A stretch of DNA of 32,993 nucleotides from NCBI GenBank assembly GCA_043766725.1, contig JAYUHT010000254.1:1-32993 (forward strand), written 5' to 3'. Origin of the DNA: Burkholderiales bacterium. Its GTDB lineage: Bacteria; Pseudomonadota; Gammaproteobacteria; Burkholderiales; Burkholderiaceae_C. The number at the start of each line of letters is the position of its first letter. Within the stretch, counting starts at the first letter, position 1. The notes below the pieces were generated by a model, which saw only the letters and a list, made by a program, of their open reading frames with translations, had not been told where the DNA came from and did not search any database. The position numbers and the translations under genes were made by a program. Of the stretch, positions 4,701 through 32,094 are shown in pieces.

Positions 4701-5160
4701 GACCCGGCGCGAGCTTGTCGCCGGAGGCTTCGATGTCGCCGTCCAGCCGCACCAGCGGGCATGCGAGTTCGCCGTTGCGCCAGAGGCTGAACTCGTTGCC
4801 GTCAGCGTAGATGAGATTGGGCAAGGATTGCAGGCGCTGCCATTGCGCCTTGTCGTGCGCCCCTCTCATGCGGCGCGGGTCGGCGCCCTTGCCGGGGGCC
4901 TTGAGTTCAACAAAACCTGCCAACGCGCCGTTCACCGTGATTGCATAGTCTGGCCGCGTGTGAAGGGCTGCTATGGAGGTTTCGCCCACGGTCACGACGG
5001 CGCCTGGGGCAAAGCCGCAAAGCGCGGCCATGTGGCCAACAAGCTGCTCAAAGGGCCCGCGAAGTTGATCTTCGGGTTCGCCCGTCACCGAGGGGTTGTT
5101 GAGCTTGGCCTTTGCGCTTTTGCCGAACTGTGCGACCACTTCAACCAGTGATGGCTTCAT
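1786..5160 (-). CDS. Single-polypeptide restriction-modification enzyme (Type IIG/IIL-like; N6-adenine MTase with Type ISP-like C-terminal specificity region)
   Basis: About 1124 aa from ATG 5160 (track extends to TTG 5205). N-terminal PD-(D/E)xK nuclease (RPDY...FVELK), GSYYTPPEVV, motif I DPATGTGTF, motif IV GNPPY, NLYVYFWRW, C-terminal YEVSGKQVLVQW. No helicase motifs seen. Confidence 0.88.
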   Translation of the reverse strand: MKPSLVEVVAQFGKSAKAKLNNPSVTGEPEDQLRGPFEQLVGHMAALCGFAPGAVVTVGETSIAALHTRPDYAITVNGALAGFVELKAPGKGADPRRMRGAHDKAQWQRLQSLPNLIYADGNEFSLWRNGELACPLVRLDGDIEASGDKLAPGQGLQALFEFFFRWDPIPPRTAKELAEVSARLCRLLRDEVTEALAEKSEALTTLAADWRELLFPQASDSQFADGYAQAVTFGLLTARARGISISTGMHGVSEELKKTSSLIGTALQLLTYSDETRKALSTSLRTLERVLDVVDWPTISKGRTDAWLYFYEDFLEVYDSDLRKLTGSYYTPPEVVGSMVGLVDEALRRPGFDRPRGIADRSVTIADPATGTGTFVLGVLRHVAATVAADEGPGAVAAAIESAMQRLLAFELQLGPFAVAQLRVIAEALALTGAPPKTAPRMFVTDTLGNPHDDGGRFPGFLAPIGRQRKDANRIKRDEPITVVIGNPPYKEKAKGRGGWVEGEGRAKGMYAPLDDWMPPLAWGASAHSKHLRNLYVYFWRWATWKVFDHQPAMGAAAGSGIVAFITVAGFLGGPGFQRMREYLRQRCHEVWVIDCSPEGHQPEVATRIFQGVQQPVCIVLASQWNASQKTQPAVVRWRALPAGHRSAKFEALAALKLDAPGWVLCPHDGRAPFLPASTADWAAHPALEDFFIYNGSGVMPGRTWVIAPDAESLTRRWARLVAAPVQDKERLFHPHLAKEGLGDRHVARVVSTSLAGYPVSERPVGQETGASVAPVAYGVRSFDRQWIVPDVRLINRPNPELWQVRSGAQVYLTAPHDRPPTDGPAATVSALIPDLHHYNGRGGRAFPLWADAAATQPNLRPALLSHLSTTYGQPVSAEDLFAYIAAVAAHPAYIERFRNDLATPGLRIPLTADAATFADAAALGRRVVWLHSFGERLADSAAGRPPGPPRLPPERRPKVPAGGAIPTDSAGMPDVMSYDATAQRLHVGTGYIAPVPAAVWHYEVSGKQVLVQWFSYRRKSRERPIIGDRRAPSPLGDIQPEAWLAEYTTELLDLLNVLGWLIELEPAAAKLLERICTGPLLDAVAMQALGLFTDAPLGPSQRRQRARASRPVPDPGLPRLEGF

Positions 5161-5318
5161 TATCAAATCCACTCCCCGCGTAGTTTGGCAATTGTCGGTG
5201 TTCAAGTCGACTGGCCGGATGCAGCTGGAAGCTTGAGCAGTACTGATCTGCTGTTTCAGCCTCTAAAGCCACAACGGCAAATTTGCTTGGCAGCACGGTT
5301 CAGCGCTGCGCAGGGGTC

Positions 5319-18146: not shown

Positions 18147-18214
18147 GGCCGCAATGGTGGCACCTTGTGCGCACCCTGGTTGGCGCGGGGGTTTGATGGC
18201 TCAGGTTAAAGGGG

Positions 18215-19306
18215 ATGGGCAAGACACGCTATCGGGGCTCCAATGGGCCGGTGCCAAAAAACGCCGCCTTCTTCATCTGTGCTGCGGTGCAGACTCATGT
18301 CGCGCAGCGATGTGATGTCGGGACCAAGCGGCGCTCCTGGCTGCTGGCCAGCGCCAGCACCGCGCTGTTCAGCGGCTTTGCTGCGCAGCCATCGCGTGCC
18401 CAGCCTGGCCAGGTGTTGCAACGCATCGGCTATCTGTCGGCAGGCAGCGCCACCTTGAACCCCGCCGGCTTGCAGGCCTTTCGCGAGGGCTTGCGCGAGC
18501 GCGGCCATGTCGAAGGCCGCGATGTCGTGTTGGACGTGCGTTTTGCAGAGGGGCGCGCGCAGGACCTGCCGCGCCTGGCCACTGAGCTCGCCGCGCTCAA
18601 GCCCGTCGTGATCATCGCGCCGGGCCAGGCCACTGACGCAGCGCTGGCCGCCACGGCCACGCTGGCCACGCCCATCGTGTCACTGGGCGACCTGGTCGCC
18701 TCGGGCTACGCGGTGCAGCTCGGGCGCCCGGGTGGAAGGGTCACGGGGATCAGCTTTCTGCCGTTTCCGCTGAATGCCAAGCGCCTGGAGCTGCTCGCGC
18801 AAACCTTGCCCAAGGGCAGCACGGTGCTCAACCTGGCCGGCCTACAGCCCCGGCCCGAAGCCATGCAAATGGTCGAAGACGCGGGGCGCTCGCTGGGGCT
18901 GGTGACGCATGCGGCTTATGCACACACGGTGGAGGAGATCGACGCGGCGTTCGCAGCCGCACGCCGCTTGCGCGTGGCCGGGGTCAACGTGCTCAATTCA
19001 CCGTTCCTGTACAACCTGCGCGCGCACATCTTCCAACTCGCGGCCAGTGCCAAACTGCCCGCCATCTACCAGTGGCCGGACGCCGCGCGCGAGGGTGGAC
19101 TGATGGCCTACGGGCCGAGCCTGGACGCGATGAATCGCCAGCTCGCCGGTTACGCCTCGCGCATCCTGGGTGGCGCCAAGCCGGCCGACCTGCCCATCGA
19201 ACAACCGACGCGGTTCGAGTTGGTCATCAACCTGAAGACCGCCAAAGCGCTAGGCCTTAACGTTCCAAATGCGCTGCTGCTGCGGGCCGACGAGGTGATT
19301 CAATGA
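18215..19306 (+). CDS. ABC-type substrate-binding protein, COG2984/ABC_sub_bind-like (paralogue 1); start uncertain (ATG 18215 or GTG 18287)
   Basis: KRRSWLL signal-like segment, RIGYL, LGRPGGRVTG, KRLELL, GGLMAYGP, GAKPADLPIEQPTRFELVINLKTAKALG, LLRADEVIQ. Confidence 0.88.
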   Translation: MGKTRYRGSNGPVPKNAAFFICAAVQTHVAQRCDVGTKRRSWLLASASTALFSGFAAQPSRAQPGQVLQRIGYLSAGSATLNPAGLQAFREGLRERGHVEGRDVVLDVRFAEGRAQDLPRLATELAALKPVVIIAPGQATDAALAATATLATPIVSLGDLVASGYAVQLGRPGGRVTGISFLPFPLNAKRLELLAQTLPKGSTVLNLAGLQPRPEAMQMVEDAGRSLGLVTHAAYAHTVEEIDAAFAAARRLRVAGVNVLNSPFLYNLRAHIFQLAASAKLPAIYQWPDAAREGGLMAYGPSLDAMNRQLAGYASRILGGAKPADLPIEQPTRFELVINLKTAKALGLNVPNALLLRADEVIQ

Positions 19307-20310
19307 ACCGCCGCCCGTTCATTGCCGCGCTGGCGGGTGGCGTATTCGGCACGGCAGGTATCGTTGTCGCGCAGCCGGCCAAGGTCTGGCGTATCGGCTA
19401 CATCGTGCCGCGCCCGTCTAGCAGTGATCCCACTCGTGCGGCCGGCGTAGCGGCGTTTCATGACGCCATGCGCGAGCGCGGCTACGTGGCGGGGCGCGAC
19501 TATCGCCTGGAAGAACATTCCGTCGACGGCCGCAACGAGCGTTATGCCGAAATCGCCAATGAGCTGGTCGCGAGCCGGGTCGATCTGCTTCTGGTCGGAG
19601 GCACCTCGGGTGCAAGGGCCGCACAAAAGGCGACGGCGACGATCCCCATCGTTATTTTTTCGGCGTCTGACCCGGTGGGCACCGGCCTGGTGGCCAGCCT
19701 GGCGCGCCCGGGCGGCAACATCACCGGCCGCTCGACGATCACCGCCGAGCTCGACCCCAAGCGGCTCGAGCTGCTGCGTGAAGCGGTGCCCGGCCTGGCC
19801 AACGTGTCCGTGTTGATGGTGGTCTCTCGCGAGTCACCGGGCGTGCCTTCATTGCTGGAGCGGGCGTTTGCGGGCGTCGAAGCGGCCGGCCGCCAGCGTG
19901 GCGTTCGCGTCCGGGCGGTGGGGCTGCAGGGCGCGTCGGCGCTGGACGCGGCACTGGCGCAGATTCACAGCCTGCGCCCAGGTGGTCTGATCGTCTTTGA
20001 CCAGGCCGTCGTCTTGCGCGAGAGCGAGCGCATCCTCGATTTCACGCAGCGCGAGCGCCTGCCGGCGATCTTCCAGTCCAGCGGCTGGGTGAGGGCTGGC
20101 GGGCTGATGTCGTATGGGCCGAACACCACCGATGAGCTGCGTCGGATCACCGCCTACGTGGACAAGATCATCAAGGGTGCCAAGCCCGGCGACCTGCCGG
20201 TCGAGCAGCCCACGCAGATCGAACTGGTCATCAACCTATTGACCGCCAAGGCGCTGGGCTTGACGATCCCGCAAACACTGCTGGTGCGGGCCGATGAGTT
20301 GATTCAGTGA
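19303..20310 (+). CDS. ABC-type substrate-binding protein, COG2984-like (paralogue 2)
   Basis: MNRRPF signal, DPVGTGLVASLARPGGNITG, GGLMSYGP, LPVEQPT, RADELIQ; ATGA overlap with paralogue 1. Confidence 0.92.
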   Translation: MNRRPFIAALAGGVFGTAGIVVAQPAKVWRIGYIVPRPSSSDPTRAAGVAAFHDAMRERGYVAGRDYRLEEHSVDGRNERYAEIANELVASRVDLLLVGGTSGARAAQKATATIPIVIFSASDPVGTGLVASLARPGGNITGRSTITAELDPKRLELLREAVPGLANVSVLMVVSRESPGVPSLLERAFAGVEAAGRQRGVRVRAVGLQGASALDAALAQIHSLRPGGLIVFDQAVVLRESERILDFTQRERLPAIFQSSGWVRAGGLMSYGPNTTDELRRITAYVDKIIKGAKPGDLPVEQPTQIELVINLLTAKALGLTIPQTLLVRADELIQ

Positions 20311-20317
20311 ACAACGC

Positions 20318-20578
20318 TCAGGCCGCCGATTCGAGCGCGATCTCCCAGCTCGGGAACACCAGCACTGCCGGATGGCAGTTGAGCGCCCGGGCCAGAACTT
20401 TGGCCCGCTCGACCCCCAGGTTCACGCGATCATTCTCGATCGCGGAAATGGTCGCCTGCGGGATGCCGGTCAGTGCGCAGAGCTGGTTTTGCGTCAGCTC
20501 CTGCAGTTCCCGCAGGATGCGCACCGACTCGCCAACGCTGACGTCGACGCGCTTGCGGGCTGGACGAAACTCTTTCAT
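20318..20578 (-). CDS. XRE-family HTH antitoxin (HigA-like)
   Basis: RBS GGAGG, ATG 20578; LRELQELTQNQLCALTGIPQATISAIEN is an HTH; lies directly downstream of the RelE-like gene. Confidence 0.88.
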   Translation of the reverse strand: MKEFRPARKRVDVSVGESVRILRELQELTQNQLCALTGIPQATISAIENDRVNLGVERAKVLARALNCHPAVLVFPSWEIALESAA

Positions 20579-20579
20579 T

Positions 20580-20820
20580 TCAACGCCTCCGATAGTCGTG
20601 CGCGGGCACTTCAACGACCTGAATCAACATCACGCCAGTAGCCCGCTGGTAGATCACCCGCCACTGCAAACCCAGGCGCGACGAGCGCTGGCCCTTGCAC
20701 TCACCCGACAAGGCTTCATCATGAAATCCCTTGATGGCACGCAGGCCGGCAGGGCCCGAAAGCATGGCGATGTCTTTCCCCTTCTCGTAGCGTTTCAGGA
20801 CTTCCTGGGGAACCGCAGCA
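20580..20820 (-). pseudogene. RelE/HigB/YoeB-like mRNA interferase toxin, apparently lacking its native N-terminus
   Basis: GFHDEALSG..KGQRSSRLGLQWRVIY...HDY is a RelE-fold pattern; sequence upstream of 20820 is an antisense fragment of a binding-protein gene. Confidence 0.75.
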
Positions 20821-20910
20821 GCCAGCACCGCGCTGTTTGGCGGGCTTGCTGCGCAGGCATCGCGTACCCAGCTTGGCCAAGTGTTGCAACGCATAGGCCA
20901 TCTGTCGGCA
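20821..20910 (+). repeat. 90-bp diverged direct copy of 18353-18442 (5' part of SBP paralogue 1)
   Basis: Ungapped manual alignment gives 80/90 identical bases. Confidence 0.92.
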
Positions 20911-20959
20911 ACAAGCGCCCATGCCGCGCGGCGATGTCAAGGTTTGGCGCATGCTGATA

Positions 20960-22414
20960 TCAATCGTTAAGCCATTGAGCGGCCATCTCGCCCAGCGCCG
21001 CGGTGTAGCAGGACATCGGCACGCGCACGATGCCCGCGCCGATTTGCCCGATGCCCGCTTCACGGTGCGCGATGCCGGTGGTGACGATGGGGCGAATGCC
21101 GCTGTCCACCACCTTGCGCACATCAATGCCGCAGGGTGCACCGGCAAAGTCCAGCGCCGGCAAGCTCAAGGCCGGGTTGCGGGTCACCGTCACTTCAAAC
21201 ATTTCGCGGCTGTAGCGCACGGCGTCACTCACCGTGCCGCCGGCCAGCAAGGTGAGCGCGGGCGAGGCGGCGAACGAGCAGCCGCCAAAGCCCGCGGTTT
21301 CGGTGATCGCGCTGTCGCCAATGTCGGGGCAGGCGTCTGCTTGCTTGAAGCCGGGGAAGAACAGGCCCTGCGGCAGATCAGACTTGGCCGTGAACCACCG
21401 CGGCCCCAGGCCGCTGATGCGCAGCCCGGTTTCGGTGCCGTTGCGCGCCGTGGCCGTGACCACGCTGCTGAAGGCAATGCCATGCGCGGCGTCCATGATG
21501 GCTTTGCACGAGACCATGGAAAAGTTCAGGAAGAACTGCGAGGTCTTGGCCACGAAGTCGAGCGTGTGGTGAATATGCTCAGGCGGCGGGCCCCCCCGTT
21601 GCGCGCCCAGCGCCGCCAGCGGCACGGCCAGGGTCATGAAGAACAGTGCGGTGGACGCGGCATTGCGGCTGTGCACTTCGTCGCCCATCAGTAAGGCCTG
21701 CGATTGAATGGCTTTCAGGTCGATGCCGCCGGCCTTGTCGAACTCATGCCGCACGGCCGCCTTGAGCACCGGAGCCAGCACCGCTTCAAACCATTTCAAA
21801 CGTTGCAGCACATCGGGGCCGTTGGCGCCAAAGCGCAGGCAGCGGCCAATGCCTTCATTCAGATTCGTGTAGGCGCGGTTGCCGTGCGTGGCGCAGCGCA
21901 CCTGAATCAAGGGCATGCTGGCGCTGATCACGCCGGTCATCGGCCCCACGGCGGCGTAGTCGTGGCACTGCGCAAATTCCACTTCACCGCGCGCCAGCAT
22001 GGCGTGCGCCTGCTCGGGCGTGCTGGCCCAGCCCTCGTACAACACGGCGCCAACGAGCGCACCATGCATGGGGCCGCACATGTCGTCAAAGGCCACCGGC
22101 GGGCCGGCGTGCAGCAGCAGCCGCGCGCCCTTCATTTGCGGCCACACCGCATCGGCGCGCAGGGCAATGTCTTCCCACAGGGGGCGGGCGTTGATGATGC
22201 GTTGCGTGGCCTGGGCGTTGGCCGCTTCAATGCGCGCATCGCCCATCAGCCGCGCGAGCTGCCAGGCCAGCAGCGGGTCCGCATTGCCGGGCGGGCGCCA
22301 ATGCACGTTCGCCAGGCTGCCGCCGCTGGCGGTGATGCTGGCGTTGAAGCCTTCCAGGCCGATGTTCAGCACCGCCGGCGCCTGGTTGAGCAGGGTGTTC
22401 GCGTTGAGCGTCAT
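20960..22414 (-). CDS. DUF1116 protein (YahG/YlbE-AllG family; putative catabolic carbamoyltransferase subunit)
   Basis: LLHAGPP, MCGPMHGA, AVGPMTG, LNEGIG..LRFGA, MGDEVHSRN, DIGDSAITE, GIGQIGAG; YahG-like N-terminal extension VLNIGLEGF...WRPPG. Confidence 0.9.
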   Translation of the reverse strand: MTLNANTLLNQAPAVLNIGLEGFNASITASGGSLANVHWRPPGNADPLLAWQLARLMGDARIEAANAQATQRIINARPLWEDIALRADAVWPQMKGARLLLHAGPPVAFDDMCGPMHGALVGAVLYEGWASTPEQAHAMLARGEVEFAQCHDYAAVGPMTGVISASMPLIQVRCATHGNRAYTNLNEGIGRCLRFGANGPDVLQRLKWFEAVLAPVLKAAVRHEFDKAGGIDLKAIQSQALLMGDEVHSRNAASTALFFMTLAVPLAALGAQRGGPPPEHIHHTLDFVAKTSQFFLNFSMVSCKAIMDAAHGIAFSSVVTATARNGTETGLRISGLGPRWFTAKSDLPQGLFFPGFKQADACPDIGDSAITETAGFGGCSFAASPALTLLAGGTVSDAVRYSREMFEVTVTRNPALSLPALDFAGAPCGIDVRKVVDSGIRPIVTTGIAHREAGIGQIGAGIVRVPMSCYTAALGEMAAQWLND

Positions 22415-23121
22415 GTTTGTTCGATGGGTAAGGCGGTCAGGGCCAGCAGCAGGCCGGCCAGCATGTCGGCGCCCGAGCTGGCGCCCAGGCCGAGCAGGGT
22501 TTGAGTGTGATGGCCGATGGCCGCGTGCTCGTTGTCTTGCAGCGCGGCCAGCAGCTCGTGCAAGGCGCGGTAGCTGGCGCCGTTCAGCAGATCAGCCAGC
22601 AGGTGGGCGCTGATCTCATTGGTGGCCGCGCGCGCCGCCGCCAGCAAACGCATCCGCACATCCACCAGTGGCTCATGCCAATCGTTAGGTGCGGCGTGCG
22701 CCAAAGCGAAGAACACGCCGCCGGTGAAATCATCGCCGCTGGGCGTGAGGCCCGGGCCCAGGCCCAGCACGCGCAAGCAGGCGGCTTCCAGGGCGGGCAG
22801 GTCGTGCGCGTGCAAAGCACGGCGCACGGCGTCAAAACGCGGCGTGGCCAGCCTGAACGGGAAGGGCAGTTCCTGCGCTTGCAACCACCGCAGCAGCCCT
22901 TTTGCGGGCAGCCCGTGCAGCAAGTTCAGGCAAGTGTTCGCGCCCGCGCGCAAGTCACGGGCGTGAACGCGCAGCGCGGGCGGCTGCCATGGGTGCAGGG
23001 CGTGGCGTGGGTGATCGGTTTGGGCGCGCTTGCCGGCCCATACGAGCACGCCGTTGCGCCAGGCGTAAGCGGTGGCCTCGAAGCCGGCCACGGGTTGCAG
23101 CGCCGCCGTGCCGGCGTTCAC
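22411..23121 (-). CDS. DUF2877 protein (YahE/YlbF-AllH family)
   Basis: LGLGPGLTPSGDDFTGG, TNEIS, LGASSGADMLAG; GTG start overlapping the carbamate kinase stop. Confidence 0.85.
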   Translation of the reverse strand: MNAGTAALQPVAGFEATAYAWRNGVLVWAGKRAQTDHPRHALHPWQPPALRVHARDLRAGANTCLNLLHGLPAKGLLRWLQAQELPFPFRLATPRFDAVRRALHAHDLPALEAACLRVLGLGPGLTPSGDDFTGGVFFALAHAAPNDWHEPLVDVRMRLLAAARAATNEISAHLLADLLNGASYRALHELLAALQDNEHAAIGHHTQTLLGLGASSGADMLAGLLLALTALPIEQT

Positions 23122-24122
23122 GGCCGCCCACCCAAGGTGATGTGGGTGCCCGCGCGCCCCAGCAGGGCTTCATGCGCTTTTTCAAGCGAAGTGATGATCA
23201 CTTCACCCGCCGCATTGGCCTGTGGCGCTTCTTGCAGGAAGCTGATGGCGGCCTCGATCTTCGGCCCCATGCTGCCGGGCGGAAACTGGTCTTGGGCCGC
23301 GTACTCGCGCGCCTGCGCCAAGCTGAGGTGGTCCAGCCAGCGCTGGCCGGGTTGGTTGTAGTCGAGCGCCACGCGCTCCACGCCGGTGAGCATGATCAGC
23401 GCATCCGCATGCAGGTGCGCGGCCAGCATGGCGCTGGTCAGGTCCTTGTCGATCACCGCGGCCACGCCCTGCCAATGGCCCTGCGCGGTGTGCAGCACCG
23501 GCACGCCGCCGCCGCCGCAGGCGATTGGGATCACGCCCGCATCGAGCAGGGCGTCGATCGTTTTCAGATCGAGAATCTTGCGCGGCTTGGGGCTGGCCAC
23601 CATGCGGCGCCAGCCGCGGCCCGAATCTTCGGCAAAGTACCAGCCGGTACTGGCGGCCATCTGCTTGGCTTCAAGCTCGCTGAAGAACCTGCCCACGGGC
23701 TTGGTGGGGTTGTGAAACGCCGGGTCGTCGGCGTCCACTTCCACTTCCGTGATGATGCAAGACACCACCACGTCCAGCCCTTTGTCGACCAGCACATTGG
23801 CCAGGCTTTGCTGCAGCATGTAGCCCATGCCGCCTTGCGAATGCGCCACGCACACATCCATGGGCATGGGCGGCAGTTCGTTGGCGGTGCGCGCCATGCG
23901 ATAGAGGATGTTGCCCACCACCGGGCCGTTGCCATGGGTGAGCACGAGCTGCCAGCCGGCATGGATGATTTCTACCAAGTGGCCGCAAACCTGGCGCATC
24001 AAGGCCAGTTGCTCCTCGGCCGTGCCCTTGATGGTGGGCGGATACGCCGCATTGCCGCCCAGGGCCACCACCACGCGCTTGCGTGGTGTTAACGCTTGGC
24101 GAAACTTCTTCACAGCAGCCAT
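23118..24122 (-). CDS. arcC: Carbamate kinase
   Basis: VVALGGNA, THGNGPVVG, SQGGMGY, PTKPVG, GWRRMVASP, GGGGVPV, AVIDKD, GSMGPKIEAA. Confidence 0.95.
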   Translation of the reverse strand: MAAVKKFRQALTPRKRVVVALGGNAAYPPTIKGTAEEQLALMRQVCGHLVEIIHAGWQLVLTHGNGPVVGNILYRMARTANELPPMPMDVCVAHSQGGMGYMLQQSLANVLVDKGLDVVVSCIITEVEVDADDPAFHNPTKPVGRFFSELEAKQMAASTGWYFAEDSGRGWRRMVASPKPRKILDLKTIDALLDAGVIPIACGGGGVPVLHTAQGHWQGVAAVIDKDLTSAMLAAHLHADALIMLTGVERVALDYNQPGQRWLDHLSLAQAREYAAQDQFPPGSMGPKIEAAISFLQEAPQANAAGEVIITSLEKAHEALLGRAGTHITLGGRP

Positions 24123-25654
24123 TGCCCCGCCAGCCAGGCCGCGTTGGCGCTGTTGCCCGCCAGCACCATGCCGGCCGCACGCAGCGTGGCCTCTTGGCGC
24201 GACAGCACTTGCGGGTCTAGCTCGGTGCCGCAGACAAAACCCAGCACGGCCAGCTCGCGCCCGCCCTGGCGCGCCTGGCGCCTGGCCTGCTGGATAGCGC
24301 TGGCCAGCTCGGCCGCGGGGTCGGCATGCGCGCCCCAGCCAATGACCACATCGAGCACGATGACGCGCACCTGCGGATCGTTAGCTTCCTTGAGCAAGCG
24401 CTCGATGCGCGCCGCCTGGTCAATCATCGGGTGCGGGCGACCCACGGTGAACTCATCGTCACCCAAATCGAGCACGCTGTGGCCCAGGCTGGCCTGGCGT
24501 GGGTTGGGCAACGCATGTTGCGAATCAAGTGGAACGTTAGACCACACGGCCAATCCAGATCGGGCCCACAGCACCTGCGCCTCGTAAGCGTAGGTGCCAC
24601 CTGAATACAGGGCGCGCAAATACTTCTGCTGTGCCTTGAAGCGCGGCTTGGGCGGCAATGCATAGGCCTGCATGGCCGAGCGCTTGCGGCCGGCCAGCTT
24701 CACCGCCGCGGCGGCGCAATCCACCAAGGTGTTCACCACACGAATACCGGGGGCGCGCACTGTGCTGCCCAGGAACAGCAGCACGGCCGGCTTGCCTGCG
24801 GCCTGCAAGGCGGCCACCACCTTGGCGGCCACTTCAGGCGCGGGGGGCTTGGACAACACCGCGATCACTTGGGTGGCCGGGTCTTGCGCCAGCAGCGCGA
24901 TGCCGCGCAGCAAGCTGGTGCCGCCGACCGCCGCGCTGCCGTCGCGCCCGCCGGTGCCGATGGCGTGGCTCACGCCGCCGCCCATGCGGTGGATTTGCGT
25001 GCTCACCTCTTGCAAGCCCGTGCCCGACGCGCCCACCAGCCCGATGCTGCCGGCGCGCACGTTGTTGGCAAACCCGAGCGGCACCCCGGCGACGATGGCG
25101 GTGCCGCAGTCGGGGCCCATCACCAGCAGGCCGCGCTTGGCGGCTTCTTGCTTCATGGCCACCTCCTGCGCCAGTGGCACGTTGTCGCTGAACATGAACA
25201 CGTTCAAGCCGCGTTGCAAGGCCTTCAACCCTTCGGCCCCGGCATATGCACCGGGCACTGATATTTGCGCGATGTTGGGCGGCGCCGCAGTGCCCGGGCG
25301 GGCCAGGGCCATGGCACTGCTGCGTGGCGGAACGACTTCTTGCGCGCTGGTGCTGGCACCCTGCTCGTGCTGGCCCACCAGGTGCGCCTGCGCCGCCGTG
25401 CGCGCGGCCTCGCCAGCGCCGGGCGTGCGAGCCTGCACCACCACCATCACGTCAGCCGGCCCGGCCTCTTGGATCGCGCCATGCAGCAACCCGGCTTCTT
25501 GCAGAATGGCCTTGTTCGCGGCCGTGCCCATTTGCAGGCTGGCGTTCACCACGTCGGGCAGGGCCAGCAAGCGCTGCGCCACTCGCATCAGGGCCACGGA
25601 GTCCTGGTACAGGTTGGGCTGGATGAAGGCAAGGGTGTGCAGGGGCGGGGTCAT
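24110..25654 (-). CDS. fdrA: FdrA/YahF family protein (acyl-CoA synthetase-like fold; AllF-like)
   Basis: YQDSVALM, MGTAANK, ISVPGAYA, MFSDNV, MGPDCGT, VGASGTGLQE, HAIGTGGRD, YSGGT, DLGDDEFTVGRPHPMID. Confidence 0.93.
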   Translation of the reverse strand: MTPPLHTLAFIQPNLYQDSVALMRVAQRLLALPDVVNASLQMGTAANKAILQEAGLLHGAIQEAGPADVMVVVQARTPGAGEAARTAAQAHLVGQHEQGASTSAQEVVPPRSSAMALARPGTAAPPNIAQISVPGAYAGAEGLKALQRGLNVFMFSDNVPLAQEVAMKQEAAKRGLLVMGPDCGTAIVAGVPLGFANNVRAGSIGLVGASGTGLQEVSTQIHRMGGGVSHAIGTGGRDGSAAVGGTSLLRGIALLAQDPATQVIAVLSKPPAPEVAAKVVAALQAAGKPAVLLFLGSTVRAPGIRVVNTLVDCAAAAVKLAGRKRSAMQAYALPPKPRFKAQQKYLRALYSGGTYAYEAQVLWARSGLAVWSNVPLDSQHALPNPRQASLGHSVLDLGDDEFTVGRPHPMIDQAARIERLLKEANDPQVRVIVLDVVIGWGAHADPAAELASAIQQARRQARQGGRELAVLGFVCGTELDPQVLSRQEATLRAAGMVLAGNSANAAWLAGQWLL

Positions 25655-25762
25655 CAAGTCGCTCGATGGTTCATGAAAGCGCTGAGCGTGCAGCGCAGGC
25701 AGTCTGTGAAGGTCGCTTTGCTACGATGAACCGATCAGGCTTTCAACCGGCACCGCCCTCGC

Positions 25763-27025
25763 ATGACCCTGCCCAAATTGTCACCTCTGGCCGAACCCGC
25801 CTCGGCATTGAACGAACTCAACCCCGCACCGCGTTTGTTGATGGGCCCCGGCCCCATCAACGCCGACCCGCGCGTGCTGCGCGCCATGTCTGCCCCGCTG
25901 CTGGGCCAGTTCGACCCGCAGTTTCGCGGCTACATGCGCGAGACCATGGCGCTGTACCGCGCCTTCTTTGAAACGAAGAACGACTGGACCCTGGTGCTCG
26001 ACGGCACCGCGCGCGCCGCCATTGAAATGGTGATGCTTTCGGCCACGGCGCCCGGCGACAAGGTGCTGGTGTGCAGCTTCGGCCGCTTTGGCCAGTTGCT
26101 CGATGAAATCGCGCAGCGCTGCGGCGCTAACGTTCGGGTTGAGAAGGTGCCCTGGGGCACGGTATTCAGCCTGGAACAGATCGAAGCCGCGCTGAAGGCC
26201 CATTCACCCAAGCTGGTGGCGATCTGCCAGGGCGACACCTCCACCACCATGTTGCAGCCTCTGGCCGGGCTGGGTGAGCTGTGCCACCGCTACGGCGCGC
26301 TGCTGCAGGTGGATGCCACGGCCTCGTGCGGTGGCACGCCGCTGCCGGTGGACGGCTGGGCTGTGGATGCCGTGACGGCCGGCCTGCAAAAGTGCCTGGC
26401 CGGGCCGTCGGGCGCGGCGCCGATCACGCTGTCGCCAGCCATGGCTGAATTGATCTACAGCCGCCGCCACATCGAACAAGGCCTGCAAACCGCGGGCTAC
26501 GTGCCAGGCAGCGGGCCGCGCATTGCCTCGAACTACATGGACCTGGCCATGGTGATGGACTACTGGAGCGACGCTGGCCTGAACCACCACACCGAAGCCA
26601 CCACCATGCTTTATGGCGCCCGCGAATGCGCCCGCATCTTCGTGCAAGAGGGCTTGCCACAGGCCTACGCGCGCCACGCCGCCGCCTCGCGCGCGGTGGT
26701 GGCCGGCGTGCAGGCCATGAACCTGAAGCTATATGGCGACTTGGCCAACAAGATGCCCAACGTGACCGGCATCTACATCCCCGAAGGCCTGAACGGCGAG
26801 CGCGTGCGCGCCGCGCTGCTGAAGCACTTCAACATCGAGATCGGCACCAGCTTCGGACCGCTGCACGGCAAGGTCTGGCGCATCGGCGCCATGGGCTACA
26901 ACGCCCGGCCTGATTGCGTGCTGAACACCCTGGGCGCGCTGGAAGCGGTGCTCGCCGCCGAGGGCCACCGCTTCACACGCGGGGCGGGGGTGGACGCCGC
27001 CTACCAAAGCTACCAAGGCGCTTGA
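25763..27025 (+). CDS. pucG: Class V PLP aminotransferase, (S)-ureidoglycine-glyoxylate aminotransferase-like (PucG/HpxJ)
   Basis: RLLMGPGPINADPRVLRAMS, GQFDP, DATAS, GLQKCL (PLP Lys), SNYMDL, LNHHTEATT, IEIGTSFGPLHGKVWRIG. Subfamily call rests on recalled PucG sequence features. Confidence 0.82.
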   Translation: MTLPKLSPLAEPASALNELNPAPRLLMGPGPINADPRVLRAMSAPLLGQFDPQFRGYMRETMALYRAFFETKNDWTLVLDGTARAAIEMVMLSATAPGDKVLVCSFGRFGQLLDEIAQRCGANVRVEKVPWGTVFSLEQIEAALKAHSPKLVAICQGDTSTTMLQPLAGLGELCHRYGALLQVDATASCGGTPLPVDGWAVDAVTAGLQKCLAGPSGAAPITLSPAMAELIYSRRHIEQGLQTAGYVPGSGPRIASNYMDLAMVMDYWSDAGLNHHTEATTMLYGARECARIFVQEGLPQAYARHAAASRAVVAGVQAMNLKLYGDLANKMPNVTGIYIPEGLNGERVRAALLKHFNIEIGTSFGPLHGKVWRIGAMGYNARPDCVLNTLGALEAVLAAEGHRFTRGAGVDAAYQSYQGA

Positions 27026-27143
27026 GCGCATCGCTGCCGGCGATGCGATGGCACGTCGAGCTGGTGATGAGATGCGCGCGGTCCGCGGCCTCGTGACCCC
27101 GCTGCGCGAAGGTCAGCCAGGCGCCTGGGCGCTGTCAATAGCT

Positions 27144-27178
27144 TGTACAATTTGAATTTCCAATCTTCAATTTGTACA
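27144..27178. promoter_or_regulatory. AT-rich inverted repeat (putative operator) overlapping a TACAAT -10-like hexamer
   Basis: TGTACAATTTGAA-N9-TTCAATTTGTACA, 12/13 complementary, ending 1 bp before ATG 27180. Confidence 0.65.
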
Positions 27179-27179
27179 G

Positions 27180-28349
27180 ATGCTAGACCGCCAGGCTCAT
27201 GCGCTGCTGCACCAGATGGCGCGCGGCTTTTCCGTGATCGCCCTCACCGGCCCGCGCCAATCAGGCAAGACCACGCTGGCCCGCCTGGCCTTTGCAGACA
27301 AGCCGTATCTGTCGCTCGAAGACCTGGAAGTGCGCCAGCGCGTGCTGGCAGATCCGCGGCAGTTCTTGGCACAACTGCCCAACGGCGCGGTGCTCGACGA
27401 AGCGCAGCGCTGCCCCGAGCTGTTTTCCTATCTGCAAGGGGTGGTGGACGAGCGCGCGCGCATGGGCGAATTCGTGCTCACAGGTTCACAGCAATTCGGC
27501 CTCACCGCAGCCATCACCCAGTCTCTGGCCGGGCGGGTGGGGCTGGTACACCTGCTGCCGCTGTCGTGGCCTGAACAACAGCACGCCGGCGTGGCCGCCA
27601 AGACGCTTGAACAAGCCGTGTGGGCGGGCGGCTACCCGGCGCTGTTTGATGCGCGCCGCCGCATCGAGCAGCCCGAGCAATGGTTCAGCGCCTACACGGC
27701 CAGCTACATCGAGCGCGATGTGCGCCAGGTGCTTGGCGTGGCCAACTTGTCGCTGTTCCGCCGCTTTGTGCTGATGTGCGCGGCGCGCACTGGGCAGCTG
27801 CTGAACTTGTCTGCGCTGGCCAGCGATTGCGGCATCAGCCACACCACCGCGCGCAGCTGGCTCACCGTGCTGGAAGCCAGCTACGTGGTGTACCTGCTGC
27901 CGCCGTTTCACCAGAACTTCGGCAAGCGCCTGGTGAAGATGCCCAAGCTGTACTTTCTGGACACCGGCCTGCTGTGCCACCTGCTGCGCATCGACAGCCC
28001 TTTGACGCTGGCCACCCACGCCCTGCGCGGCGCCATTTTCGAGTCGTGGGTGGTGGCTGAAACGCTCAAGCACCGGTTCAACCAGGGCATGAATGCCGAT
28101 CTCTATTTTTGGCGCGACAACCACGGCACCGAGGTCGACTTGATCTTCGAACACGCCGGCTTGCTGCACGCGGTGGAAGTGAAGTCTGGCGCCACGTTTG
28201 CGCCCGATTGGCTGCAAGCCTGCCAGCGCTGGCAGCGCTACGCCGGCGCTGCCGCGGCGGCGCCGGTGCTGGTGTACGGCGGGCGTGACAGCTACGGGGT
28301 GAGCGGCGTGCGGGTGATGGCTTGGCACCAGCTGGGCTGCGCGCCGTGA
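27180..28349 (+). CDS. AAA_14 ATPase with DUF4143 domain (COG1373)
   Basis: Walker A GPRQSGKTT, Walker B VLDEAQ, LTGS, SLAGR, GGYP, YIERDV, KMPKLYFLDTGL, C-terminal EVDL...VEVKS nuclease-like motif. Confidence 0.93.
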   Translation: MLDRQAHALLHQMARGFSVIALTGPRQSGKTTLARLAFADKPYLSLEDLEVRQRVLADPRQFLAQLPNGAVLDEAQRCPELFSYLQGVVDERARMGEFVLTGSQQFGLTAAITQSLAGRVGLVHLLPLSWPEQQHAGVAAKTLEQAVWAGGYPALFDARRRIEQPEQWFSAYTASYIERDVRQVLGVANLSLFRRFVLMCAARTGQLLNLSALASDCGISHTTARSWLTVLEASYVVYLLPPFHQNFGKRLVKMPKLYFLDTGLLCHLLRIDSPLTLATHALRGAIFESWVVAETLKHRFNQGMNADLYFWRDNHGTEVDLIFEHAGLLHAVEVKSGATFAPDWLQACQRWQRYAGAAAAAPVLVYGGRDSYGVSGVRVMAWHQLGCAP

Positions 28350-28477
28350 AGCGATACAAGCTGGAAAGGGCTGGCGTAAAACGGGCTGGCGCAAGAGCAT
28401 GGCCAAGCGCATCATGGCCTGCAATGCGGCCTGTGGCGTGATTCAGCGAAGCCCGGTAGCCGCCGCTGGGAGGTTCC

Positions 28478-29464
28478 ATGATTCGTCGTCGCATGCTTGG
28501 CGCGGCAATTGGCGCAGTGCCGCTAACCTGGCATTACACAGGGCACACCCAATCGACCGTGGCCTTTCGCCGCGTGGGCCTGATCACGGGTGGCTCGCAA
28601 GCCGGCGCCAGCGCGTATGTGGCGGCATTCAAGCAAGGCATGGCTGACCTGGGCTGGATTGAGGGCCGCAACGTGCAGTACCACTTCGCCTATGCCAATG
28701 GCGACATGGGCCGCTTTGATGCCCTGGCGCAAGAGCTGCTGGCGCAAGGCGTTGAGCTGGTTGTGAGCGGCCCGAACGAAGGTACCCGCGCGGTGCACGC
28801 CGCGGCCCCTGCGCTGCCCATCGTGATGGCCTACAACGCCAACGTGCTCAAGCATGGCTTTGTGGCCAGCCTGGCCCGCCCCGGTGGCGTGATCACCGGG
28901 TTGAACATGCAGGCAGAAGACTTGTTCGGCAAGCTGCCGCAGATGCTGCATGAGATGTTGCCGCAGGTGCGGCGCGTGGCCGTGCTGAGCGGTGGCACGT
29001 CTGACTTCACCAACGACTCCTGGGTCGGTACGCAGCGTGCCTGCATGGCGCTGGGGCTGGTGGCGCAGCGCTTCACAGCCACCAATGCGGCACAGTTGGA
29101 CGACGTCATCAAGCAAATCCAGCAGCAGCGCCTGGATGCCGTGGTGGTACCCGCCAACACCTTGCTCATCGCCGAGCGCGTGCGCCTGCACAGCCTGCTG
29201 CAAGCCGCCGCTTTGCCGGCGGCCTATGCCCTGCGTGAGCATGCCTTGGCCGGTGGCTTGTTCAGCTACGGCGCCAACGTCAATGCCCACTTTCGCACCG
29301 CCGCCAGGTACGTTGACAAGATCCTCAAGGGCGCCAAGCCGGCCGACCTGCCGGTTGAACAGCCCATGACCTTCGAGCTGGTCATCAACCTGGCCACCGC
29401 CAAGGCCTTGGGCATTAACGTTCCAAAAGCGCTGCTGCTGCGCGCCGATGAGGTGATTCAATGA
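28478..29464 (+). CDS. ABC-type substrate-binding protein, COG2984-like (paralogue 3)
   Basis: RBS GGAGG, MIRRRML signal, VASLARPGGVITG, GGLFSYG, GAKPADLPVEQP, LLRADEVIQ. Confidence 0.92.
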   Translation: MIRRRMLGAAIGAVPLTWHYTGHTQSTVAFRRVGLITGGSQAGASAYVAAFKQGMADLGWIEGRNVQYHFAYANGDMGRFDALAQELLAQGVELVVSGPNEGTRAVHAAAPALPIVMAYNANVLKHGFVASLARPGGVITGLNMQAEDLFGKLPQMLHEMLPQVRRVAVLSGGTSDFTNDSWVGTQRACMALGLVAQRFTATNAAQLDDVIKQIQQQRLDAVVVPANTLLIAERVRLHSLLQAAALPAAYALREHALAGGLFSYGANVNAHFRTAARYVDKILKGAKPADLPVEQPMTFELVINLATAKALGINVPKALLLRADEVIQ

Positions 29465-30432
29465 GTCTGCACCGCCGTGCCCTGGCCGCGCTGCCCCTGG
29501 CCGTGTTGCTGCCCACGCCATGGGCCCAGGCCTTGCCGCGCATTGCGTGGGTGTGGCCCGGCAGCGCCAGCGGCGACGCCGTGCGCCTGGCTGCCTTCAA
29601 GGAAGGCATGCGCGACGCCGGCATGCTGGAAGGGCAGCACTACCTGCTTGACATGCGCTACGCCGATGGCCAGTACGAGCGCTTCACGCCGCTGATTGCC
29701 GAGTTGCTGGCGGCCCGGCCGGCTGTTCTGATGGTCAACACCATTGCCTCGGTGCGCGCGGCGCAGCAGGCCACCACCAGCGTGCCCATCATCTTCGTGG
29801 CCACCAACGACCCCGTGGGCAGCGGCCTGGTCGCCAGCTTGGCGCGGCCCGGCGGCAACACCACGGGGCTGTCATCACAGAACGAGGACACGGCGATCAA
29901 GAACCTGCAGCTCTTGCGCGAGATGCTGCCGCGCGCGTCGCGGCTGGCCGCGCTGGTCAACCCGGGCAACCCTTCGGCGGCAAAAATTTTTGAGCCCGTG
30001 CGCGCGGCGGCGCAGCGCCTGGGCATCGACGCCTTTGCGGTGGAACTGGCCTCGCCCCAGGGCCTGGACGCCGCCTTCGGCCTCGTCATGGCGCGCCGCC
30101 CCGACGCCTTGCTGGCCATCCCGGACGCCCTGTTCAACAGCGAGCGCGAACACATCGCCGCCCTGGCCCTCAAGCACCGCTTGCCCTACTTCACCACCAA
30201 CCGTGAAAGCACGGCGGCCGGTGGCCTGCTTTCGTACGGCCAGCCGCAAATGGTGATGTTTCGCCGCTCGGCCCTGTATGTGAAGAGCATCCTGGCCGGT
30301 GCCCGGCCGGCCGAGTTGCCGGTTGAGCAACCCACGCGGTTCGAGTTGGTCGTCAACCTGAAGACGGCACGGGCGCTGGGTATTAACGTTCCAAATGCGC
30401 TGCTGCTGCGCGCCGATGAGGTGATTGAATGA
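29461..30432 (+). CDS. ABC-type substrate-binding protein, COG2984-like (paralogue 4)
   Basis: MSLHRR signal, DPVGSGLVASLARPGGNTTG, GGLLSYG, LPVEQPTRFELVVN, LLRADEVIE; ATGA overlap. Confidence 0.92.
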   Translation: MSLHRRALAALPLAVLLPTPWAQALPRIAWVWPGSASGDAVRLAAFKEGMRDAGMLEGQHYLLDMRYADGQYERFTPLIAELLAARPAVLMVNTIASVRAAQQATTSVPIIFVATNDPVGSGLVASLARPGGNTTGLSSQNEDTAIKNLQLLREMLPRASRLAALVNPGNPSAAKIFEPVRAAAQRLGIDAFAVELASPQGLDAAFGLVMARRPDALLAIPDALFNSEREHIAALALKHRLPYFTTNRESTAAGGLLSYGQPQMVMFRRSALYVKSILAGARPAELPVEQPTRFELVVNLKTARALGINVPNALLLRADEVIE

Positions 30433-31427
30433 ACCCACCGCGACGCTGGCTGTTGCAATGGCTGGCCGGCGCAGCCGCCCTGCACGGGCGGGCCGCGCTG
30501 GCCCAGGCCAAGGTGGTGCGCGTGGGCTTTCTGGTGTTCCAGGCGCCACCGAACCCGGCCGACCCCAACTCGCGCTCCGTCGAGCAGGGCTTGCTCGACG
30601 CCGGCTACGTCGAAGGCCGCAACCTGGTGATCGAGCGCCGCTATGCCCAGGGCAACGCCCAACTTCTTCCGGCGTTGGCCGCAGAGCTGGTGCAGGCGCA
30701 GGTCGATGTCATCATGATCTTCGGCCCGGCGCCGCTGGAGGCCGCGCGCAGGGCGACCCGAACCATTCCCTTGGTGATGCTGGCCAGCAGCAGCGACCCG
30801 GTGGCCGATGGCCTGGCGGTGAGCCTGGCACGGCCGGGCGGCAACATCACCGGGTTGACGTACGCGGTGTCGTCGGGGCGCTTTGGCAAGCAGCTCGAAT
30901 TGCTCCAGCTTGCGGCGCCTCGGCTCGGGCGGGTGGCCGTGCTGTGGGATCTCGACCTGGAGATTTATCGCCGTTCCTGGGCCGCGCCGATGGCCGATGC
31001 CGCGCGCACCCTGGGCCTGGAGGTGCTGGCACCCACCATCGTGCAGGCGGCGCGCGACCTGCCCGAAGCCTTTGCACAAATGAAGCGGCAACGGGCCGAC
31101 GCGATCCTTGTCGCCACAGGCGGCCCGCTGAATGCGGCACGCGCGCAAGTCGGCGCGCTGGCGATTCAGCACCAGCTACCCACCATCGCGGCGTTCAAGG
31201 CATTTGTACAGGCCGGTCTGCTGATGAGTTACGGCCCCGACCTGCCGGACATCAATCGCCGCGGCGCCAGTTATGTCGATCGCATCGTCAAGGGCGCGAG
31301 GCCCGGCGAGCTGCCGATCGAATTGCCGATCAAGTACGAGCTGGTGATCAACCGCACGACCGCCAGAGCCCTGGGCATCACGATCCCGCAAGAGCTGCTG
31401 CTGCGCGCGGATGAGGTGATTCAATGA
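30429..31427 (+). CDS. ABC-type substrate-binding protein, COG2984-like (paralogue 5)
   Basis: MNPPRRWLL signal, SLARPGGNITG, GLLMSYGP, LLRADEVIQ; ATGA overlap. Confidence 0.92.
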   Translation: MNPPRRWLLQWLAGAAALHGRAALAQAKVVRVGFLVFQAPPNPADPNSRSVEQGLLDAGYVEGRNLVIERRYAQGNAQLLPALAAELVQAQVDVIMIFGPAPLEAARRATRTIPLVMLASSSDPVADGLAVSLARPGGNITGLTYAVSSGRFGKQLELLQLAAPRLGRVAVLWDLDLEIYRRSWAAPMADAARTLGLEVLAPTIVQAARDLPEAFAQMKRQRADAILVATGGPLNAARAQVGALAIQHQLPTIAAFKAFVQAGLLMSYGPDLPDINRRGASYVDRIVKGARPGELPIELPIKYELVINRTTARALGITIPQELLLRADEVIQ

Positions 31428-31497
31428 ACACACGACGGCGGCTCAAATGGCCATGGCGCTGCGCGCAGACAAGGGCGATCAAATGAACGGTGATCAA

Positions 31498-32094
31498 ATG
31501 AACAGACGCCGATTTCTCGCGGCTGCCGCGCTGGGCGCGGCGGTGCCCATTTCAGCCCGCGCGGCCCGCCCGGGCGCGCGCACCGGCCCAGGCCTGCTCA
31601 CCGTGGCCGGCGCGATTGCGCGCAGCAACCGAGGCCCGCTGGACCCGGCGCTGGATCAACTGATGGTCAAGCACGGCGCCAAGTTCGAGCGCGCGTTTGA
31701 GTTCGACGCCGCCATGTTGGCCCGCCTGCCGGCCATGACCATCGCGCCCACGCTGGAGTACGACGCCAAAACACATCGCTTGAGCGGCCCGCTGCTCAGC
31801 ACGGTGCTCGAAGCCGCGGGCGTGGCCGCTGTTGGGGCCATGAGCGCGCCGGTGATGCTGGGTTTGCGCGCACTCGACGGCTACACCGCGGCAGTGAGCC
31901 TGGCCGACGCGAAGGCCTACCGCATGATCGTGGCCACCACGCTCGACGGTGCGCCGCTGAGCATCGGTGGCCTGGGCCCACTGTGGGCGGTTTATGACGC
32001 GGATCGCCTGAGCGCGTTCAAAGACAAGCCGCTGAAGGAACGCTTTGGCCTGTGCCCGTGGGGGCTTTACTTCATCGACGTGAAAGCGGCGTGA
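31498..32094 (+). CDS. Tat-exported molybdopterin-dependent oxidoreductase-like domain protein
   Basis: MNRRRFLAAAALG Tat signal; LLTVAG, SGPLLSTVL, LRALDGY, DGAPLSIGGLGPLW resemble the Oxidored_molyb fold. Confidence 0.72.
   Translation: MNRRRFLAAAALGAAVPISARAARPGARTGPGLLTVAGAIARSNRGPLDPALDQLMVKHGAKFERAFEFDAAMLARLPAMTIAPTLEYDAKTHRLSGPLLSTVLEAAGVAAVGAMSAPVMLGLRALDGYTAAVSLADAKAYRMIVATTLDGAPLSIGGLGPLWAVYDADRLSAFKDKPLKERFGLCPWGLYFIDVKAA

Follow-up and report, generated by a model that had tools for sequence, protein, structure and literature searches.

The contig JAYUHT010000254.1 (C254) of the Burkholderiales bacterium assembly GCA_043766725.1 encodes five orphan binding-protein genes, named S1 to S5 here, three of which end in a nearly identical stretch of 50 bases that we refer to as the tail. 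The whole stretch of DNA that was analysed, 32,993 nucleotides long, is called the window throughout and belongs to a genome (G000) available as a 4.13-Mb assembly with a completeness of 71%. All five genes encode proteins of the family PF04392 (ABC_sub_bind), with scores of 94-137 bits against a Pfam cut-off of 25.9, and neighbours within an array are joined by ATGA overlaps. A profile search found 12 PF04392 matches in the genome. The features of the window are given in Table 1.

Table 1. Genes, tails and remnants in the window, with positions counted from its first base.
Feature	Position	Strand	Remarks
S1, PF04392 gene	18215..19306	+	longest open reading frame (ORF); family-type RR start region near 18326; start codon looks decayed
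Tail copy 1, TTAACGTTCC version	19257..19306	+	likely acquired; 3 of 10 S1-type genes have TTAACGTTCC
S2, PF04392 gene, TIP-type tail	19303..20310	+	ATGA overlap with S1
HTH antitoxin-like gene, antisense to array	20318..20578	-	HTH_3 match; weak TIGR03070 match below cut-off
5'-truncated toxin-antitoxin (TA) partner gene	20583..20820	-	no family match; 78% DNA match to locus L053
Remnant, 5' end of S1-type gene	20821..20919	+	87% to 18353-18451; deletion scar of decayed array
AAA_14/DUF4143 gene	27180..28349	+	in or at edge of arrays in genomes G120 and G164 too; likely array cargo
S3, PF04392 gene	28478..29464	+	in clade with TTAACGTTCC tail on 5 of 5 sampled genes; likely donor lineage
Tail copy 2	29415..29464	+	sequence match
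S4, PF04392 gene	29461..30432	+	three closest tree relatives bear other tails
Tail copy 3	30383..30432	+	likely acquired; 49/50 to tail of unrelated gene of G120
S5, PF04392 gene, TIP-type tail	30429..31427	+	profile match and sequence
20-codon start stub, then 198-codon RR-signal gene (31498-32094)	31424..32094	+	sequence

The three tails were as alike as the original prediction, made from the sequence of the window alone, had stated: copy 1 shared 47 of 50 bases with copy 2 and likewise 47 with copy 3, and the latter two shared 48. The tails of S2 and S5 matched the three copies at 35-41 of 50 positions. The bodies of the genes were otherwise divergent, with 30-34% identity among the three tail-bearing proteins. 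The likeness of the tails went beyond protein conservation because synonymous codons agreed more often in the tail than upstream of it. Codons for the same residue were shared in 12 of 14, 12 of 14 and 14 of 14 cases in the tail versus 23 of 37, 21 of 33 and 21 of 37 just upstream (~60%), which supports the predicted homogenization at the DNA level. The codons GTT and CCA in the tail are atypical, making up 5.5% of the valine and 6.4% of the proline codons in these genes. The last ~30 bases are conserved family-wide (S5 agreed with S3 at 29 of 30 bases there), so the distinctive part is limited to the first ~17 bases. This portion reads TTAACGTTCCAAA(T/A)GCG, and a 50-mer search found TTAACGTTCCAAA at only these three places in the genome. 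The palindrome AACGTT of the tail, which had been thought special, proved to be a common 6-mer with 1604 occurrences, both strands counted.

We compared these genes with relatives on 89 sequences that yielded 331 tails and 273 intact genes, or 329 and 271, respectively, in 26 genomes after removal of a duplicate locus (2 genes). The duplicate was removed from the change-point, codon and neighbour, tree and divergence analyses and is still contained in the neighbour-identity profile, the break counts based on log-likelihood ratios (LLR), the TA-module counts and the survey of carriers and tail onsets. The loci were chosen as array-rich and are not a random sample of the genus. All 58 of the 329 tails that lie on broken or cut genes were left out of the body comparisons, five other loci with TTAACGTTCC pattern matches were not used, and one misaligned ORF was dropped. 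Within the genus, 52 of 222 genomes matched S4 at E<=1e-25, and 15 chosen genomes showed 10-61 PF04392 matches each. Arrays in relatives run head to tail with up to 15 tails per examined stretch, and their gene order is shuffled. The TTAACGTTCC version itself is rare, with 8 exact matches in 3 assemblies labelled Rubrivivax sp. or Burkholderiales metagenome-assembled genome among 185,579 genomes (own genome left out) and 0 matches in viral contigs.

As predicted, the tail also provides the next gene with a ribosome-binding site and a start codon. The start overlapped the upstream stop in 161 of 170 adjacent binding-protein genes, in-frame starts had RR, KR or RK among their first ten residues in 137 of 144 cases, and GAGGT occurred in 113 of the 140 tails preceding a binding-protein gene versus 60 of 101 other tails. 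The GAGGTGAT in the last ~30 bases matches the canonical 16S end, which was used for the comparison since the 16S 3' end is absent from the assembly. Protein constraint, codon bias and this ribosome-binding signal could in principle explain all likeness of the tails, in which case no DNA would have been exchanged and the arrays would be old duplications. Constraint does account for the last ~30 bases, given the GAGGT counts and the likeness of tails in unrelated pairs (mean 34.5/50, n=35,720, with 78 pairs at 47 or more). It does not account for the rare GTT-CCA, which was accompanied by AAC in all 11 tails that have it; among the 58 remaining Val-Pro tails there were 1 GTT-CCG and 3 GTT-CCC. 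Since constraint alone is further contradicted by an incongruent body tree and by near-identical bodies with unlike tails, both described below, we give it hardly any credence.

The same tail was found on bodies that do not group together. On a body tree of 27 rows (the carriers and the three nearest non-carriers of each), the 11 intact TTAACGTTCC carriers could not be explained with fewer than 5 changes (the best tree needs 6), and a single clade was rejected by the approximately unbiased test (p-AU 8e-5). Genes of the S3 clade carried TTAACGTTCC in 5 of 5 sampled cases, S1-type genes, whose bodies in relatives are 87-92% identical to S1, in 3 of 10, and another type in 1 of 4. From this pattern of carriage the S3 lineage was likely the donor. 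Converse swaps were also present, in which bodies of 89-94% identity had tails sharing 35-38 of 50 bases (e.g. 94% body with 37/50 and 89% body with 35/50). Tails with at least 46 of 50 shared bases on unrelated bodies made up 1.7% within genomes vs 0.5% between genomes, a result reached by 0 of 500 label shuffles.

Near-identical genes pointed in the same direction. For 117 pairs from 45 clusters, divergence relative to unrelated pairs was 0.20 in the body and 0.24 in its most conserved motif, and was 0.26, 0.34, 0.44 and 0.49 in the last four 30-base bins toward the stop. A change point at the 3' end (last ~140 bases) was found in 63 of these pairs (22 of 45 clusters), compared with 2-9 in five control windows. 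Within the family, no DNA is more conserved than the tail, yet no part of the gene is inherited together with the body less often.

Near-identical pairs across genomes had different downstream genes in 22 of 36 cases, and identity in the tail followed the neighbour. At -48..-31, genes with near-identical bodies showed an identity of 0.71-0.77 when the downstream gene differed (36 pairs) and of 0.85-0.86 when it was the same (13 pairs), with a background of ~0.6, and breaks with LLR>5 were present in 17 of the 29 pairs whose downstream genes differed and in 2 of the 13 that shared theirs. These breaks tied to neighbour change argue against short-tract gene conversion as the sole process, by which tails would be homogenized while insertion sequences, deletion and horizontal gain alter the order of genes, and so do the tail stubs heading TA-linked units and a kinase. 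Conversion alone would agree with the weak link between a tail and the gene downstream of it and with the sharp start of the shared version at -50, upstream of which each gene has its own sequence, but we consider it very improbable. No rule of array position was recovered. The tail had been described as limited to non-terminal genes, and a next binding-protein gene followed AACGTT tails in 6 of 9 and TIP-type tails in 39 of 62 cases; in G120 an AACGTT tail sits on an array-ending gene, and in the window an overlapping start comes after S5 and a TA pair after S2.

Genes within arrays that do not encode binding proteins belong mostly to type II TA pairs (PIN with AbrB, Phd or RHH; BrnTA; MNT-HEPN; DUF433-DUF5615; TacA-GNAT). 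In the window, we presume the truncated partner gene of the HTH antitoxin-like gene to be RelE/HigB-like, profile searches having given no family for it. We listed 35 TA modules by hand, some with one unannotated partner, of which 27 are antisense; a non-coding tail stub follows 11 of these 27, with E<0.01 for 8 of them, whereas the 8 sense modules have none. Such stubs precede non-binding-protein units and in many cases consist of no more than the final ~26-35 bases. Units of only 86-340 bases, in which a start stub is fused to a tail and the body is deleted, occur in L029 (G059), L004 (G016), L032 and L060 (G214). Near-identical TA pairs were found behind different genes, and arrays, which we estimate at ~1% of bases, held 14 of 110 PIN matches in four genomes (hand count). 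Passages of PMC8876359 describe TA cassettes with their own promoters as a feature of chromosomal integrons, which they are said to stabilize. By analogy, the TA pairs likely stabilize the PF04392 arrays by limiting deletion.

Change points ran from -151 to -7, with an interquartile range of -86 to -52 and a 5-95% range of -123 to -20. Simulated single sites at -90, -72, -54 and -33 gave interquartile ranges of at most 5 bases, so the observed spread is unlike one fixed site. Of the predicted recombination at the tail, the reshuffling of genes by breaks that lie in the tail region was supported, and a defined 50-bp site was not. A dedicated site-specific or strand-annealing recombinase that is encoded elsewhere and acts on the tail, the genes being true cassettes, seems improbable to us. 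The cassette-like architecture with antisense TA pairs, the short stubs, the start of the shared version at base -50 in all carriers and the integron integrases in 165 of 222 genus genomes, the window genome included, would all suit such an enzyme; breakpoints over ~100 bases, a tail without hairpin and the gene content around the arrays would not. No attC hairpin was found in ten 100-base folds of the five tails on both strands, which were no better than shuffles (z -1.74 to +1.11, and -0.59 to +0.77 for the three copies of the 50-mer). Of the 185 ORFs lying up to 3.5 kb from arrays with at least four tails, 144 were scanned, and apart from one DDE_3 fragment neither a recombinase nor a reverse transcriptase was present. 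The same ORFs held no integron integrase (intI), the gene that in an integron stands with attI at the array head, contig-end sides of cut arrays lying outside the scan.

The integron integrase of the window genome is encoded at L089:4102-5094 (C270), scores 341.8 bits against a cut-off of 265 and lies at a contig end beside a DNA polymerase III alpha-type gene. An attC pattern scan of this 5.1-kb contig, with the integrase gene at its end, found none. The integrase is located away from the arrays, on another contig in the window genome and ~100 kb off in G016, and is also encoded in genomes without an S4 match, e.g. G032-G039. As it is genus-wide and located elsewhere, we rejected it as a partner of the arrays. 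Further candidates were rejected as well. AACGTT is unsuitable as an integrase core because, besides being common, its context GTTCCAA is unlike GTTRRRY, and the central inverted arms of a dif-like 28-bp site, as in the dif consensus, appear to be missing from the tail. A diversity-generating retroelement was discarded because flanking ORFs held no reverse transcriptase (the whole genome was not searched for one) and the assembly no fourth copy; adenine-type variation was not seen either, the tail copies differing at G/C and C/T sites. The integron-like logic that had been proposed holds for the architecture, a variable array of gene units with TA pairs, neighbours and antisense orientation as counted above, and is not supported for a site-specific chemistry. 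Breakpoints spread in the most similar DNA and incongruence of tail and body were found, as in paralogue arrays that undergo homologous recombination. Since the tails lack an attC hairpin and no recombinase gene was seen next to the arrays, homologous recombination is most likely.

We conclude, with a probability of roughly three in four, that the 50-mer is one version of the conserved PF04392 3' end and that it was moved between unrelated bodies, the most likely route being homologous recombination anywhere in the conserved last ~90 bases and not at a fixed site. The mechanism itself would most likely be ordinary recombination. The C-terminal protein motif together with the GAGGTGAT-ATGA ribosome-binding and overlap signal would keep the tails alike, and each gene would therefore be flanked by direct repeats. 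Crossovers between these repeats, by unequal exchange, by excision and re-entry or by uptake from related species, might add, delete and reorder genes, and after each of them a gene in frame, with its ribosome-binding site and start codon, would remain. Cycles of duplication and deletion, or conversion, could have carried one tail version out of the S3 lineage into S1, S4 and two further types. The antisense TA pairs would be passengers. Array genes were probably also exchanged between species.

The arrays might have a function in sensing. In nine arrays, the last gene overlaps by 4 bases with a gene for a dCache-HAMP-GAF-HisKA kinase. The genes in front of the kinase belong to 8 distinct intact body types and in one case are represented by a broken gene, and 18 kinase N-termini of this type were present in the compared loci. 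The window genome encodes such a unit on contig C66 (L088:1265-5702), with genes for a dCache-HAMP-GAF-GAF-HisKA kinase, a receiver and a receiver-cyclase, followed by a PF04392 gene. An orphan tail stub of 34 bases stands at the head of this unit, an arrangement of stub and kinase start that is also present in L064. The orthologue of the C66 kinase in G111 is overlapped by an S4-like gene (65%). A predicted complex of S4 with the dCache domain scored 0.60, with 0.00 for the best of 3 controls, at least 95% of contacts shared between runs and a partner pLDDT (predicted local distance difference test) of at least 90; of 157 solved pairs, 116 came up to the mark for this score, as did 2 of 215 mismatched ones, but at 0.60 or less just 18 of the 157 solved pairs and both mismatches did so. 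The model thus hints weakly that S4 might bind the dCache domain of the kinase. Solved relatives by fold are 3LKV, 3LFT and 6HNI (E 6e-30 to 8e-17). A TrpX-type ABC importer was rejected because S4 reached 112.9 bits against the TrpX cut-off of 390 and no permease gene lies on the contig, none of 48 PF02653 matches being on C254. Known ligands of PF04392 or TrpX-type proteins include Trp, Tyr and Phe according to parts of PMC10443332. The arrays likely represent a variable ligand-sensing repertoire for the dCache-HAMP-GAF histidine kinase and not a transport function. Amidase and/or cNMP (cyclic nucleotide monophosphate)-binding genes flank arrays in several genomes (flanks of L001, L004, L034, L039 and L058). 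These flanking genes and the frequent kinase-receiver-cyclase end suggest a conserved home locus of the arrays linked to cyclic-nucleotide signalling.

A more far-reaching possibility, which we hold to be rather unlikely, is a selected, integrase-free cassette system. Its coding 3' handle would at once end the protein, supply the ribosome-binding site and start codon and serve as the substrate of recombination; whole receptor genes would be traded within and between species, TA pairs would guard the array as they do in superintegrons, and tens of interchangeable receptors would feed one dCache-GAF kinase/cyclase pathway.

Several observations weigh against recombination in the tail or against its link to sensing. 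The first 60 bases of the genes were equally decoupled from the body (relative divergence 0.44), perhaps by signal-peptide drift or a second exchange zone. The tail was only weakly linked to the downstream gene, with an identity of 0.77 against a background of 0.70 at -30..-22 (31 pairs), and two near-identical TA pairs differed in the first 55-70 bases past the upstream stop, so not every boundary lies in the tail and exchange also occurred outside it. The change-point estimates cluster near -88/-81, -73/-67 and -52/-46, as two or three preferred sites could also produce, and the compared pairs share ancestors, so that counts overstate events. We infer a dependence on RecA from the spread of breakpoints, and repeats so short and often ~70% alike (the mean of 34.5/50) are low for RecA-type exchange. 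No excised circle or alternative junction of the strain was seen, with assembled contigs of public sequencing runs as the only material; no RNA run was listed as containing this DNA. Finally, the window's own arrays have no adjoining kinase gene.

The window also showed traces of its own rearrangement. In four genomes, the locus after the aminotransferase gene is occupied by an array that differs from one genome to the next, and the S1-S2-TA block (18200-20960) occupies the place of a PIN-type pair and a 536-codon gene in G120, of which only ~40 bases of the start are left in G000. In another assembly, the main array is headed by a sequence that the leader of this block matches, and the block looks like a displaced and decayed piece of the main array. 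The junction 20242-21371 was confirmed by contigs from four DNA runs of a single study and bridged free of errors by contigs of runs X1 and X2, all of which may come from the source sample itself; joints at 90% likeness in these contigs had depths far above that of the strain and were not used. Pfam and NCBIfam profile searches gave no family for the 198-codon RR-signal gene, whose homologue in G120 (L038:9381-9974) is an in-array unit starting directly on a tail. AAA_14/DUF4143 genes like the one in Table 1 recur in or beside arrays in L038, L062, L064 and L079. A Type ISP restriction-modification-like gene (N6_Mtase, Type_ISP_C) lies at 1786-5205 of the window, downstream of a release factor 3 gene.

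If confirmed, an architecture resembling that of superintegrons can arise from a short conserved coding tail, without attC or an adjacent integrase. A large and unexplained family of orphan binding proteins would gain a testable use as input to a single sensor kinase, and if the reading as a selected cassette system were true, it would amount to a plug-in chemosensory repertoire. We found no literature on PF04392 arrays or on a tail mechanism in a search that covered little subscription literature and had supplements outside its scope. In the concerted evolution of tandem paralogues, one sequence version spreads among the copies through unequal exchange and ectopic gene conversion. Unlike in that process, exchange here is confined to a short terminal handle, and the bodies, ~30% identical, stay distinct and module-like. 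The S proteins share their fold family with TrpX-type aromatic amino-acid binding proteins, but S4 falls far below the TrpX cut-off and lacks a permease gene on its contig. Expansions of orphan binding proteins of the tripartite tricarboxylate transporter (TTT)/TctC (Bug) type are described for Rhodoplanes sp. Z2-YC6860 and Bordetella in portions of PMC5994714. These share with our arrays the many orphan genes, the tandem arrangement (up to nine, with members mostly <50% identical) and a proposed sensing role, and the word 'recombination' is absent from the main text of that paper. Unlike them, the arrays described here belong to PF04392, are longer, are coupled by ATGA overlaps, contain antisense TA pairs and exchange sequence locally at the tail. 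With chromosomal integrons and superintegrons, as outlined in sections of PMC8876359, they have in common long variable arrays of genes plus repeats, lineage-typical repeats and TA cassettes; they differ in having no palindromic attC, no fixed G^TTRRRY crossover and no adjacent integrase, and their repeat is coding and their units are nearly all paralogues of one family. The orphan modules of Rhs in Salmonella provide a further parallel, since extracts of PMC3967940 describe how modules, once duplicated, are exchanged through homologous recombination at a conserved piece of coding sequence, and propose no dedicated recombinase. There, however, the conserved stretch spans 522 bp at 95% identity and brings a C-terminal toxin domain onto a fixed body, whereas here ~90 bp at the extreme 3' end serve the exchange of whole genes.

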